From Escherichia coli (GTDB lineage Bacteria > Pseudomonadota > Gammaproteobacteria > Enterobacterales > Enterobacteriaceae): a stretch of DNA of 15,311 nt. The first letter of the stretch is position 1, and each line of letters begins with the position of its first letter. This document shows positions 3 through 13,548 of the stretch, piece by piece. The stretch is from assembly GCF_003334815.1 (NCBI RefSeq), contig NZ_QOWO01000056.1. One strand, written 5' to 3'. The position numbers and the translations under genes are program-made. The notes under the pieces are model-generated. The model saw only the letters and a list, made by a program, of their open reading frames with translations, ran no database searches and was not told where the DNA came from.

Positions 3-1174
<1,172 letters not shown>

Positions 1175-1590: not shown

Positions 1591-2475
1591 ATGGATTTAT
1601 ATCACTTTACAGCAATTCCTATGTTGCATTCCATACTTGCATCTGAAGGCCTGAGAGAAGGATATCTAACGTTGTATGATGGAACAATTTTGTATAATAA
1701 AGTATGGTTAACGACATCTCCATTACCATATGGTCACGGATTATGTAACGGTACTGAAAAATTAAGTGAATCAGAAAAATCATTTATGCGAAGAGTCGGT
1801 AATATATCTGAGTCTACGTCTATAAATGGAACACATAATAAAAAGTTAATAAGGTTAAAAATAGATACTGAATGGATAAAAAAGCAGCCTGGATTTTGCT
1901 CATATAAAAAGCTGATGCGTGACCTTGGACAACCTAAAGCTTATGTTAAGTACGTAGGTGCAATGGGGGTTGAGGGGGCAAGGGGGATGACCGATGAGCA
2001 GATAAGTAAAATTATGCGAAAAGGTAACACAAAAGAAGATACCTGGTATATCTTTAATGGGGTCATCCCACCTTCAAAAATAGTCTCTGTTGAATATATG
2101 GAAACTAAAGATAAATATATACCATATGATTTTGAATTGCATGGAAGGGGATATATAGAAAACTCCGGCATTTATCCGATTTCGAATTTATTATTATCTG
2201 ATCTGAATCATACAATGCGAAATATTACATTTTTACCAGGTTCTGTCATAGCGTTTTGTCATAAAGCAAATTCAGAAGAAAATATTTTATTCAGACATGT
2301 ATTATTCACATGTTCAATCTCCTTGAGAAATTTTTCAGTACTGATAGCAACAGGTGATGAGACATCTTTCTATATTCATCTGGATGTATTAAAAAGTTGG
2401 ACTCAAAAAAACAGTAAAGTACTATGCCAACTTTTTGAAAAAGCACGTGAAAGTTACCACAGATACTATGGTTAG
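1591..2475 (+). CDS. Hypothetical protein, 294 aa, AT-rich, function unknown
   Basis: Long ORF in strongly AT-rich DNA with Lys/Asn/Ile-rich codon usage, unlike the flanking IS and backbone. No motif recognised with certainty. The N-terminal LYHFT..SIL..GL pattern is faintly reminiscent of ART-fold (DarT/DUF4433-like) N-termini, but downstream motifs do not obviously match. Confidence 0.6.
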   Translation: MDLYHFTAIPMLHSILASEGLREGYLTLYDGTILYNKVWLTTSPLPYGHGLCNGTEKLSESEKSFMRRVGNISESTSINGTHNKKLIRLKIDTEWIKKQPGFCSYKKLMRDLGQPKAYVKYVGAMGVEGARGMTDEQISKIMRKGNTKEDTWYIFNGVIPPSKIVSVEYMETKDKYIPYDFELHGRGYIENSGIYPISNLLLSDLNHTMRNITFLPGSVIAFCHKANSEENILFRHVLFTCSISLRNFSVLIATGDETSFYIHLDVLKSWTQKNSKVLCQLFEKARESYHRYYG

Positions 2476-3012: not shown

Positions 3013-3678
3013 TCAACGTTCTTTAGCTCCTTCCACTAACAGCCGACCTATCTCAAACACCGCAGCTGACCGTCCCGACTTCACCGCTTCGGCTTTCTGT
3101 CCCTCAACAAACCAGTTATTACCGTCCGTTCGGACCAACTCAAACATCCATGACATATCGTAAACGTGTTCCGGGATCAGCGACCCTTCTCCGGCCAGAA
3201 TACCCGCCGTTATGGAGTGGTTGCCCCCGTGCACAAAGCCAATACGCCAGGGCAACCACAGGTCAACATAGTGGTTGTTTTTATCTTGCTTCCACGGCTT
3301 CCCCTTATGGGTTCCAATGCGTGAAACGTTATCGATATAGCGTGGTAGGCTCCAAGGCCACGGCAGCACTATGTCGCTTGCCAGCGACAACGGATAATCA
3401 GCGCCGTTCATCTCACACTCTTTCATCTTTTCGTAAGATTGTATTTGGGTAAGTCCCTTAAAGAAGAACTCCTGCGGGGTCATATCCGGGCGGGCATCTG
3501 TTCCCTCCTCAGCTACCGCCAGCAAGAAATCACTCTGTACTGGCCGCACGATAGCGCGAATGAGATCTGGTAGCGCCTTAACGGGTAGTTTCTCTGCCAC
3601 AGAAAGCAGATGATTGAAGCGTTTTTTTTCATTGGCTATAGTTGCTTTATCTTTCTTGTTTCGGTTCCAGAACATCAC
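3013..3678 (-). CDS. Hypothetical protein, 221 aa, function unknown
   Basis: ORF with a strong upstream Shine-Dalgarno (TAAGGAGGG about 9 nt before the GTG/ATG start); Trp-rich segment PWPWSLP..DLWLPWRIGFVHGGNHS; no family recognised. Convergent with the 294-aa gene. Confidence 0.6.
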   Translation of the reverse strand: MMFWNRNKKDKATIANEKKRFNHLLSVAEKLPVKALPDLIRAIVRPVQSDFLLAVAEEGTDARPDMTPQEFFFKGLTQIQSYEKMKECEMNGADYPLSLASDIVLPWPWSLPRYIDNVSRIGTHKGKPWKQDKNNHYVDLWLPWRIGFVHGGNHSITAGILAGEGSLIPEHVYDMSWMFELVRTDGNNWFVEGQKAEAVKSGRSAAVFEIGRLLVEGAKER

Positions 3679-4247
3679 TGTCTGTAGCCCTCCTTATCGT
3701 GATCAGGATGATGGTTTTCATTCTAATGGTGTAGTAGTTTCACGTCACGCGCACGTGCATATTCTTCGAAAGCTTCGGCGTTAGCCGGTCAACCAGGGGT
3801 TTGAGGCCCAACCGTACGAGATCGTACGCTAAGTTCATTTTTTGAGCAGAAGAGGTGAGTAAAGAAAACGAGGGTTTTGTTTACTCTTCCCGTCAATGCC
3901 AGTAGCCATGCGGTTTCAGGGACTTTCAGTGTTAATAAACTCGGTAATCAAATCAACGTAAACCTGCCTAACAACGCCACGACTTTATTGACTTAAAATC
4001 ATATAGTTAGCTTCTTAGCGTACGTTTCCGCTCCATTGGGCTTCAAACCCCACACCCAATGACATGAGAAAAGCTGGATCTGATTCTCAAAATGCTGGGA
4101 TACCCATCGAGATGGAGAACTCAGTCAATGTTCCATTCTTTCTGAAATATGTGTGGGGACACTGATCTGTCGGGAGCCGGATGCGGTAGTTCCGCAGGTC
4201 CGGTTCTGAGGAGGGGCCCGTCCGGGCAACCGGCGGGTCTACTCACC

Positions 4248-9834: not shown

Positions 9835-10131
9835 ATGATTCAGACACGTAATCAATATCTGCAGTTTATGCTGGTTATGCTGGCTGCATGGGGCATTAGC
9901 TGGGGAGCCAGATTTGTCATGGAGCTGGCCGTTCTGCTTTATGGGCCAGGAAAAAACTATTTGTTCTTCAGTCATGGTGCTGTTCTGATGTACCTGCTGT
10001 GTGTTTTCCTGGTATACCGCCGTTGGATAGCTCCACTACCGGTCGTTGGTCAGCTGCGCAACGTTGGCGTACTGTGGCTGGTCGGTGCGATGGCCGTGGT
10101 GTATATCGGTGTATTTCTGCTCGATCGATAG
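9835..10131 (+). CDS. Small hydrophobic membrane protein, 98 aa, about 3 predicted TM segments, function unknown
   Basis: Good Shine-Dalgarno (AGGAG 5 nt upstream); three hydrophobic stretches (FMLVMLAAWGISW, AVLMYLLCVFLVY, VLWLVGAMAVVYIGVFLL); GC-rich codon usage in contrast to the adjacent mcb genes. Confidence 0.6.
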   Translation: MIQTRNQYLQFMLVMLAAWGISWGARFVMELAVLLYGPGKNYLFFSHGAVLMYLLCVFLVYRRWIAPLPVVGQLRNVGVLWLVGAMAVVYIGVFLLDR

Positions 10132-10175
10132 GAATATTCCGGCAAGTGTCATCTGTATTTAAAGGTCGTGTGAGT

Positions 10176-10628
10176 ATGAAATTTATGGAATGTGCTGTCC
10201 GGGATGTGATTTATGGGACCAATGTCCGTATTGTCAAACCGGTCAACATTTATGAATGTGAACTCAGGGACAATGTGTTTGTCGGCCCCTTCGTTGAGAT
10301 ACAGAAAGGCTGTGTCATTGGTAGTGGAAGCCGGATACAGTCGCACACGTTTATTTGTGAGAACGTAACACTGGGGGAGAACTGCTTCATTGGTCATAAC
10401 GTGACGTTCGCCAACGATCTGTTTCGTTCAGGAGCACCAGATCCGTCACCGGATAACTGGATCAGCATTACCCTGGGGGATTCGGTTACTGTTGGCAGTG
10501 GAGCCATTATTCTGTCTCCGTATATATGCAGCGGAGCTGTTATTGGTGCGGGTTCAGTTGTGGTAAAACCGATTGAGAACAAAGGCATTTATGCAGGAAA
10601 CCCGGCAAGACTGCTCAGAATATTATGA
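10176..10628 (+). CDS. Hexapeptide-repeat (left-handed beta-helix) acyl/acetyltransferase, about 150 aa
   Basis: Repeated [LIV]-G-x-x-x-x hexapeptide pattern and the characteristic C-terminal ..IGAGSVVVKPIENKGIYAGNPARLLR. The track ORF 9999..10628 has an implausible N-terminal extension overlapping the membrane protein gene; the ATG at 10176 (MKFMECAV..) is the likely start. Confidence 0.75.
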   Translation: MKFMECAVRDVIYGTNVRIVKPVNIYECELRDNVFVGPFVEIQKGCVIGSGSRIQSHTFICENVTLGENCFIGHNVTFANDLFRSGAPDPSPDNWISITLGDSVTVGSGAIILSPYICSGAVIGAGSVVVKPIENKGIYAGNPARLLRIL

Positions 10629-10658: not shown

Positions 10659-11031
10659 ATCAGAGGTAGGTCTGTGAATACGGTAGGTGTACAGAAATCG
10701 ACTGCCGGGGATCGATTTCCAGGGCCGCCCGGTATTCTGCGTCAGTGATATCACCTTTTTTTCAGTAAATAACCGAGAGCATCGTTTCCCAGCCCTGACA
10801 GTATGCGTATTCTGGCGACCCGGACTGGCAAATAACCCATCAAAAACGTTATTGCCAGACATTGCGAACTCACCAATTTTGATTATTGGAGCCACTTTTT
10901 CATAAGTTCCGTGAAATTATTTCATAATAACGACCATGTTTATTTTATGTAATGACTGGCAATAAAATAACTTGATTAAGTTCCCTTTATCCAGCCTGAT
11001 AGTGGATAAAGGAAACTCAATCATAATTTAA

Positions 11032-11385
11032 TTAGTTTATTAACTTCATCGCATTCTTTTTTGTCTCCTCATCACTTTTTTGCTCCGATTGTGAAGAGGA
11101 CTGAATGATTGTTGAAGAATTTAAATCGGCCATCTCTTTTGGAAATAGCGATCTCAATATATTCACGATATCTGAAAATGTGGTTTCTTTCGTCAGCAAT
11201 TCACATAAAAGGAAAGGGGCCCTGGGATCTTGTCTGTATAAGGCCAGACCTGCCGTCAGTGCAGCCCGGTTAAGGCGGCTGCGTTCCCCTTGCGGGATAC
11301 TGTCCAGTGTATCACAAACAATTTTATCTGTTTGATTTACATCTGGATTTAGCTTAAAGGCAATGGTTCTGCGCTTGTCCATCAT
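11032..11385 (-). CDS. parR: Plasmid partition centromere-binding adaptor ParR (StbB), 117 aa
   Basis: Translation [50 protein letters not shown].. is recognised as R1/R100-type ParR; TAATG stop/start overlap with parM. Confidence 0.9.
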   Translation of the reverse strand: MMDKRRTIAFKLNPDVNQTDKIVCDTLDSIPQGERSRLNRAALTAGLALYRQDPRAPFLLCELLTKETTFSDIVNILRSLFPKEMADLNSSTIIQSSSQSEQKSDEETKKNAMKLIN

Positions 11386-12347
11386 TAATTACCTATGAGA
11401 TACATACCGTTAACTAAATCATATTGAGAGTTATTGGTTTTAAAAAAACGTTCATCACGAATCTGTGTGTTTTTTTTTACTGCATCGCATATTAATTCTG
11501 CGCCACCACCTATAACCATAACATGAGTATAACCAGAAAATTCATTGAGTGTATTTAATACACGTTGCTCAAGTTTACGAAGTGCTTCATTCATTGCTTC
11601 GGTGACTATTGATATTTTGTTCTCATCATTAATTCGTTGCTTCAGATAGTTATTATCTTTTCTGTGAATAATTATATCGTCAGCAAGATAGCTACTTCCT
11701 TTTGTTCTCGCAAGAGAAAGGGCATCTTTTACTGCAGATGTGACCAGAGATACACCAAGAGATGAGTCTCCGTATATTTTACTGATCCCCGATAATTTCC
11801 CCATTACCTGAGAAATATCTAATGTGGTGCCCCCGAGATCTATAATTAATAAAGAATCTAACTCATCCAGTTCTTGTAGAACTTCATAACCTGCCGGTAT
11901 AGATTCAGGCATGACTTTTACATCTTTTATTGTGAATGCATCCCCACCATTTAATGTAATTTTTTTCCGGAAGTTTGCTTTCTTACGCTCAATATTTTCC
12001 GTATTGGGTTGGTTATTCCTGTCGTAATACTCTGTCAGAGGAAGTGTGCAAACAATATCCACTTCACTTACCGGCAGGCCACTGGTCAGTAAGGCGTGGT
12101 GCACCGCAACGACATTAACGTCGCTGTATTGCCATGCGATATTGGTTGTGACTACAGCATCCGGGCTGATTGGATCAAATGAATACTGTTCGCCGTTCAG
12201 TGTGTAGTTAAAGACCTTTTTATCACCAAAAGAAACTGCCCACTCGCGTTTGAAGCTGTTCGGGCTAATGTGCTGTTTAATTGTTCCGTCGCTTTCCTGC
12301 CACTGTAGTTTGATGTTTGTTGAACCGTCATCAATGAATACCAACAT
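11385..12347 (-). CDS. parM: Plasmid segregation actin-like ATPase ParM (StbA), 320 aa
   Basis: Translation [36 protein letters not shown].. is recognised as R1-type ParM (actin fold, 320 aa); Shine-Dalgarno AGGAG upstream. Confidence 0.95.
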
Positions 12348-12362
12348 TTATAAAACTCCTTA

Positions 12363-12515
12363 TGGTGTTTTTTTTGGTGTTTGTTTGGGTGTGTTTTGGG
12401 TTTTAAGTGGGTTTATTTGTCAAGTTTACCCCATTTTAACTATCAATCAATGATTATTTGTCTTGTTTTGGTGTTTTATTGGGTTTGGCGTGGGTTGTTT
12501 TTGGGTTTTGTTTGG
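12363..12515 (-). repeat. parC: parC centromere: two clusters of five 11-bp iterons flanking the par promoter
   Basis: Directly visible 11-bp direct repeats ending in TGG/GGG (TGGTGTTTTTT, TTGGTGTTTGT, TTGGGTGTGTT, TTGGGTTTTAA, GTGGGTTTATT, then a ~43-bp spacer, then TCTTGTTTTGG, TGTTTTATTGG, GTTTGGCGTGG, GTTGTTTTTGG, GTTTTGTTTGG). This is the known R1 parC architecture. Confidence 0.8.
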
Positions 12516-12524
12516 CGGATAACA

Positions 12525-12860
12525 AAAGATGTCGCCGGGCTCCTCTTTTTACTGCGCCGGCTGACGCGGCGCGGCAGGAACGCTGCCTGTGGTCAGTGTC
12601 CCGCGTCCGGCCGGGCACGGGACGGGCGCTTTTACCGCTCCCGGCTGGCGTCGGTGACAGTGTACGCCAGCTCGTCGCCCTTTTCTGATGAGCGCCCTTC
12701 AAGCCGCTTTCGCGGCATAGCCTTGCCGTCAAAAAGACGACGGCTGCGGTATTCCACGGTCGGCCTGACCCGTTACCGGACGCGGTGAACAGCCCACAGG
12801 CAGCGGGGAACGGGCACCACAGGGGTGCCCTCCCGGTGCCCTCTGTAAGAGAAGGAGCGT
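12525..12860 (+). promoter_or_regulatory. GC-rich, hairpin-dense non-coding region upstream of the methyltransferase; candidate single-strand initiation / ssDNA promoter (Frpo-like) element
   Basis: Numerous inverted repeats (GACGCGG..CCGCGTC, GCTGGCGT-12nt-ACGCCAGC, CGGCA-TAGCCT-TGCCG, GGGCAC-CACAGG-GTGCCC). Its first ~40 bp (AAAAGATGTCGCCGGGCTCC..TTTAC..) recur at 15085. The functional assignment is inference. Confidence 0.35.
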
Positions 12861-12864
12861 TGTT

Positions 12865-13548
12865 ATGTCCCGTTTTGTCCTCGGTAACTGCATCGATGTT
12901 ATGGCCCGTATTCCTGATAACGCCATTGATTTCATACTGACTGACCCGCCGTACCTCGTCGGTTTTCGTGACCGTTCCGGGCGCACCATCGCTGGCGATA
13001 AAACCGATGAATGGCTGCAACCGGCCTGTAATGAAATGTACCGCGTACTCAAAAAAGATGCGCTGATGGTCAGCTTCTATGGCTGGAACCGCGTCGATCG
13101 CTTTGTGGCCGCCTGGAAAAATGCGGGATTCAGCGTGGTTGGTCACCTGGTCTTCACCAAAAACTACACATCGAAGGCCGCATATGTGGGCTATCGCCAC
13201 GAATGCGCTTACATCCTGGCAAAGGGCAGTCCGGCCCGGCCCCGTAACCCTCTGCCGGATGTGCTGGGCTGGAAATATTCGGGCAACCGCCATCACCCGA
13301 CGGAAAAGCCCGTTACCAGCCTGCAACCACTGATTGAGAGCTTCACACATCCGAACGCGATTGTGCTGGACCCGTTTGCAGGCAGCGGCTCAACCTGCGT
13401 CGCCGCCCTCCAGTCCGGACGTCGGTATATCGGTATCGAGCTGCTTGAGCAGTATCACCGTACCGGACAGCAACGTCTGGATGCCGTACAGCGGGCCATG
13501 CAGCAGGGGGCCGCAAATGATGACTGGTTTATGCCGGAGGCTGCGTAA
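12865..13548 (+). CDS. Orphan DNA methyltransferase, beta-class N6-adenine/N4-cytosine type, 227 aa
   Basis: Catalytic motif IV DPPY (..FILTDPPYLVGF..) precedes the SAM-binding motif I (..LDPFAGSGSTCVAA..), the beta-class order. No adjacent restriction endonuclease gene. Shine-Dalgarno AAGGAG upstream. Confidence 0.85.
   Translation: MSRFVLGNCIDVMARIPDNAIDFILTDPPYLVGFRDRSGRTIAGDKTDEWLQPACNEMYRVLKKDALMVSFYGWNRVDRFVAAWKNAGFSVVGHLVFTKNYTSKAAYVGYRHECAYILAKGSPARPRNPLPDVLGWKYSGNRHHPTEKPVTSLQPLIESFTHPNAIVLDPFAGSGSTCVAALQSGRRYIGIELLEQYHRTGQQRLDAVQRAMQQGAANDDWFMPEAA

Follow-up and report, generated by a model that had tools for sequence, protein, structure and literature searches.

In the centromere parC of plasmid R1, a 39-bp stretch containing the par promoter lies between two sets of five 11-bp iterons, and each iteron binds approximately one dimer of ParR (PMC2241845). 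The parA system (parMRC) of R1 and the stb system (stbA/stbB) of R100/NR1 share with the locus described here the gene order, the protein lengths and the overlap of stop and start codons, and likewise a parC of ten 11-bp iterons arranged around a 39-bp promoter core and a stem-loop that follows parR. The par2 system of pB171 (ParMRC; ParR structure 2jd3) has a ParR of the same fold family by sequence and follows the same type II partition logic, but it belongs to another subfamily which is only distantly related to the present locus, and its centromere is organized differently from the parC found here.

The window analysed, a stretch of 15,311 nucleotides from Escherichia coli, carries on its minus strand the elements parC, parM and parR in that order. 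We consider it about 95% probable, on the basis of sequence comparison, that these form an intact R1/R100-type type II (actin-like) parMRC/stb partition operon, and the analysis produced no evidence contrary to this assignment. The locus is of the textbook kind, an ordinary and already known member of the best-studied family of plasmid partition systems. Its layout of 5 x 11 + 39 + 5 x 11 bp and its Shine–Dalgarno sequence are maintained, and the DNA aligns with the stb locus of R100 over 2658 bp at 95.6% identity, in an alignment that starts at window position 10945 and continues past 13600. The references for these comparisons were R100 and the ParM structures of R1, since R1 itself (KY749247) is absent from the plasmid collection. 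The elements of the operon are as follows.

12364 to 12513, minus strand: parC centromere/operator, ten iterons (5+5) around the promoter core, 150 bp (149 bp in R100)
12459 to 12513, minus strand: iterons 1–5, parsed as AAACAAAACCC, AAAAACAACCC, ACGCCAAACCC, AATAAAACACC and AAAACAAGACA
12420 to 12458, minus strand: 39-bp core with the par promoter, of a length that matches the R1 literature
12364 to 12419, minus strand: iterons 6–10, parsed as CAAATAAACCC, ACTTAAAACCC, AAAACACACCC, AAACAAACACC and AAAAAAAACACC
12356 to 12361, minus strand: Shine–Dalgarno AAGGAG, separated by 8 nt from the ATG of parM, read from the sequence
11385 to 12347, minus strand: parM (stbA), actin-like ATPase of 320 aa, assigned from PDB 1mwk and Pfam PF06406 and PF21523
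11032 to 11385, minus strand: parR (stbB), centromere-binding adaptor and repressor of 117 aa, assigned from Pfam PF10784, 2jd3 and R100 StbB

The limits of both open reading frames are exactly those given in the sequence-only reading of this DNA, and its proposal of a complete parMRC locus is borne out by the two proteins and by an undisrupted iteron array. ParM is identical to the crystallized ParM of R1 (PDB 1mwk) at 318 of 320 residues (99.4%, E 1e-211), the only differences being T137A and H293N. The protein matches the Pfam domain StbA_N (1e-80) and the ParM C-terminal domain (ParM_N, 1.7e-71), and residues D6, E148 and D170 are all in place. Of the nine loci compared, which include that of CP056941 with its par region of 99.9% identity, only the window has the H293N replacement (codon 11469–11471). 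NCBIfam offered no useful model for either ParM or ParR, giving only a weak match to PRTRC_D, and the assignment of both proteins is for this reason made through Pfam and PDB.

The reading frames of parM and parR overlap by one base in the sequence TAATG, which provides both the parM stop and the parR start. ParR matches the Pfam family Plasmid_stab_B (PF10784, 1e-29) and the solved ParR/StbB of pB171 (2jd3, 1.8e-9), and is 94.9% identical to R100 StbB (111 of 117 residues). All six changes with respect to R100 StbB fall within residues 56–100, the linker region, leaving residues 1–55 and 101–117 identical. The N-terminal 55 residues are the DNA-binding part in the ParR/StbB family, and residues 101–117 correspond to the ParM-binding tail in R1 (ParM–ParR peptide structure 4a62); 4a62 appears as a ParM entry among the structure matches.

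The mechanism by which ParR and ParM act is established for R1, and near-identity to that system is the ground on which it is extended to the present locus. By analogy, ParR dimers would bind the ten parC iterons cooperatively, and ParR assembled on parC would both repress the promoter situated between the two iteron sets and build the segrosome. The C-terminal tails of ParR would then capture the ends of ATP-bound ParM filaments, and antiparallel filaments growing by insertion between two ParR/parC complexes would push sister plasmids to opposite poles. The locus further predicts parC-mediated incompatibility with plasmids of the R1/R100 type.

The layout of parC agrees with that published for R1 (PMC2241845), and the count of ten units in a 5+5 arrangement made in the sequence-only reading is upheld. 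Nine of the units are 11 bp long and unit 10 has 12 bp, with a core of exactly 39 bp between the two sets. The tract is rich in A and C on the minus strand and its units are degenerate, with an A-rich stretch followed by CCC, ACC or ACA. Within each arm, lag 11 is the top autocorrelation lag (reached by 119 and 61 of 5000 dinucleotide shuffles respectively), and a lag of 94 (= 55 + 39) brings one arm into register with the other. Compared with R100 parC the identity is approximately 95%, the roughly nine point differences including three positions in iteron 3 and the extra A in unit 10, where AAAAAAAACACC presents a run of eight A residues (A8) in place of the seven (A7) of R100. Among eight other plasmids compared, the A8 form is present in CP056941 and CP101955 and absent from the remaining six, and since two of the eight carry it, the additional A in iteron 10 counts as natural variation, not as damage to the array.

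This 1-bp insertion, together with the private H293N replacement in ParM and the presence of an IS element and other rearrangements elsewhere in the window, could be taken as signs of a decaying, non-functional copy of par. Such an interpretation is exceedingly improbable, as both reading frames are of full length, no damage affects the catalytic residues, the Shine–Dalgarno sequence or the candidate promoter hexamers, the A8 iteron is common to independent plasmids and the ParR allele is also found in CP056941. The best candidate for the par promoter pairs TTGATT (12450 to 12445) with TAAACT (12428 to 12423) at a distance of 16 nt. In nine plasmids TAAACT is invariant, as is the AAGGAG Shine–Dalgarno sequence, and the −35 hexamer is TTGATT in eight and TTGACT in one (L007). 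A consensus scan of 10850–12900 returned no par promoter call, the candidate scoring 8/12 against a threshold of 9. An exact, lone copy of iteron 1 (AAACAAAACCC) lies at 3872–3882 on the minus strand, between the open reading frame 3013..3678 and mcbG, and is probably a chance occurrence in A/C-rich sequence.

The par locus is widespread. At least 5000 plasmid records match the 1.7-kb par region, of which at least 1644 have a query coverage of 80% or higher; the matches listed come chiefly from Escherichia, Klebsiella, Salmonella and Shigella and are for the most part typed as conjugative. Identity is highest (99.9%) to E. coli plasmids of 65 kb in which the microcin B17 operon adjoins par, as it does in the window. 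The F-type plasmids CP056941, CP057527 and CP057547, which resemble pMccB17, have a par region of 99.9% identity with the mcb operon next to it, match 84–92% of the window at about 98% identity, and share with the window the A8 form of iteron 10 and the ParR allele. They differ from the window in that they run on towards repA where the window has the end of an IS21-family element (1–1234), and asparagine 293 of ParM is found in the window alone. The closest full-length relatives cover 80–92% of the window at approximately 98% identity and carry the mcb operon.

The sequence-only reading had further proposed that par anchors the replicon as IncFII and places the microcin module on a conjugative plasmid of that type. 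With respect to the replicon, only the assignment to an F-like backbone stands. The same par locus (at least 95% identity) is found on plasmids typed by MOB-suite as varied combinations of IncFIA, FIB, FIC, FII, IncR, IncI1 and IncX1, and since it sits on so many replicon combinations it points to an F-like backbone without singling out IncFII. The window itself contains no rep gene, no IncFII replication module (repA/copA/copB/oriR) and no transfer genes. As regards the conjugative plasmid, the claim draws its support from the relatives: the closest carry mcb and belong to collections whose matches are mostly typed as conjugative, and CP056941, the one relative examined in detail, combines a RepA of the IncFII family with a MOBF relaxase and MPF_F. 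From these relatives we infer that the source is a conjugative plasmid whose RepA belongs to the IncFII family. The segment carrying microcin B17 thus possesses an intact active-partition cassette, which fits stable inheritance at low copy number. Beyond annotation the significance of the locus is small, and its sole loose end is the conserved stem-loop with which the operon ends, defined by the following two features.

10973 to 11023, minus strand: stem-loop with an imperfect stem of about 20 bp, 8 nt past the parR stop, from folding
10960 to 10969, minus strand: U-rich run UUAUUUUAUU, 3 nt (AAG) past the stem, read from the sequence

A palindrome downstream of parR had previously been placed at about 10986–11016 and proposed to be either a terminator or a protein-binding site. 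The palindrome exists, although its perfect 10-bp arms, CCTTTATCCA and TGGATAAAGG, are located at 10984–10993 and 11003–11012 with an N9 spacer between them, and they form the top of the longer stem. Of the two functions, that of terminator is the better option, a protein-binding site being less likely. The stem-loop is most likely a non-canonical terminator or a 3′ stabilizer of the parMR mRNA, and not a protein site.

Folding favours the par sense, with −31.3 kcal/mol (z −6.7) for the par-sense RNA and −25.3 kcal/mol (z −3.9) for the opposite strand, because the imperfections of the stem are G·U pairs on the par-sense strand. In R100 the hairpin is perfect over 19 bp, whereas the window has three changes, two of which turn G-C into G·U. 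Across 13 plasmids the structure is conserved, as 250 of 260 cells (96%) are paired in the par sense compared with 232 of 260 on the opposite strand, the differences between sequences appearing as G·U pairs in the former and as A·C mismatches in the latter. Variation in the stem comprises one compensated pair (CG/UG/UA) and two further pairs that vary just via G·U (G-C/G·U and U-A/U·G). The covariation is weak, with 25 of 500 shuffles reaching the observed score, because the 13 sequences are close relatives. The U-rich run is kept in 12 of the 13.

The distribution of these imperfections bears directly on the proposal that the palindrome is a duplex-DNA site for a dimeric protein, such as a pair of DnaA boxes or a site for another regulator. 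The perfect 10-bp inverted arms are what such a site would present, and on the minus strand TTATCCACT agrees at 8 of 9 positions with the DnaA box, the consensus of which is TTATCCACA. However the second arm reaches only 7 of 9, and in L006, L012 and L014 a C replaces a T within the box (TTACCCACT), so that the DnaA-box reading was rejected for want of conservation. G·U imperfections confined to one strand point to RNA and not to duplex DNA, and plasmids of the NZ_CP098354 type exchange the whole sequence yet retain a hairpin. The element moreover occurs at 1588 places in 1562 records, almost all of them beside parR, a distribution which also led us to reject a mobile or repeated element. A protein-binding site is accordingly regarded as very unlikely.

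In the 135 plasmid records of the NZ_CP098354 type (L008) the place after parR is occupied by another hairpin of 16 bp, UUGAUAUCUUUACCCC...GGGGUAAAGGUAUCAA, followed by UAUUUUUU and located at 360–405 in L008. It is possibly homologous to the window's hairpin, but strongly diverged and with compensated pairs. A distant ParMR operon, the parM DNA of which is approximately 68% identical over 362 alignable bases, carries a canonical terminator in the corresponding place.

The stem of the window's hairpin is strong by folding energy but A/U-rich, and its U-run is interrupted and begins only after the 3-nt spacer. The consensus scan of 10850–12900 made no terminator call after parR, the site falling just under the threshold, a result explained by the base composition of the stem and by the gap between stem and U-run. 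A long A/U-rich stem that lacks a contiguous U-tract would also suit an element acting mainly as a 3′ stabilizer or processing site of the mRNA, or insulating the operon from transcription that converges on it from the acetyltransferase side, and not as an efficient terminator. This alternative is unlikely, though it deserves serious consideration: the plus strand folds too, with the z score given above, and genes converge on the stem-loop both here and in R100, but its position and architecture are like those of the terminators of related operons, and the conservation of the U-rich run argues in the same direction. As structure and position suggest, parM–parR transcription would most likely end at the A/U-rich stem-loop right after parR, or the mRNA would be protected by it. 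Because genes converge at this point, the stem-loop possibly acts in both directions.

A more far-reaching proposal is that the stem-loop represents a conserved functional RNA of the par operon and not a plain terminator, either a 3′-UTR structure setting ParM:ParR mRNA stability or a bidirectional insulator, with at least two structurally equivalent sequence types in F-like plasmids and, separately, that the A8 form of iteron 10 subtly alters centromere phasing or autorepression; this we regard as distinctly doubtful. Searches of Rfam gave no family at the gathering score over the whole window, and between 10850 and 12900 only chance-level matches, to MIR159 (E 0.084) on the hairpin and to Erse (E 0.13) on a GC-rich block beyond parC. 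The open literature yielded neither a mapped 3′ end of the par mRNA nor any description of the stem-loop.

The left flank of R100 differs from that of the window, and homology between them stops at approximately 10945, which places the left boundary of the par cassette at about 10916–10950. Beyond this boundary the flanks vary by plasmid, with genes for an HNH endonuclease or a ParE toxin or hypothetical open reading frames, the place being taken in the window by an acetyltransferase reading frame (9999..10628). That the left flanks differ between plasmids suggests that par moves as a module.

On the other side of the operon, the GC-rich block (12520–12870) lies between parC and a DNA methylase gene and contains a 30-nt imperfect inverted repeat (12581–12610 / 12776–12805). 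As single-stranded DNA its minus strand folds with −99.3 kcal/mol (z −6.05). In the same plasmid search, many F-like plasmids match the block over its first 39 nt while lacking the remainder of the par locus. One possible role of the block is that of a single-strand promoter or initiation element of the leading region (Frpo/ssi-like). The idea that it is another copy of an Frpo-type repeat was rejected, the flanking 23–50 kb of two plasmids having yielded no second one. RefSeq annotates in this region a hypothetical open reading frame of 97 aa, the TTG start of which (12495) is placed inside the parC iterons.

At the opposite end of the window, positions 1–1234 are the 3′ part of the IS21-family element, in which the reading frame 374..1174 encodes the IstB helper ATPase (3e-90). 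Homology to the pMccB17-type backbone begins at 1235, and the end of the IS21-family element therefore marks a rearrangement. Two further reading frames, 1591–2475 (plus strand, 294 aa) and 3013–3678 (minus strand, 221 aa), gave no NCBIfam match; the former corresponds to a hypothetical protein annotated in related plasmids.
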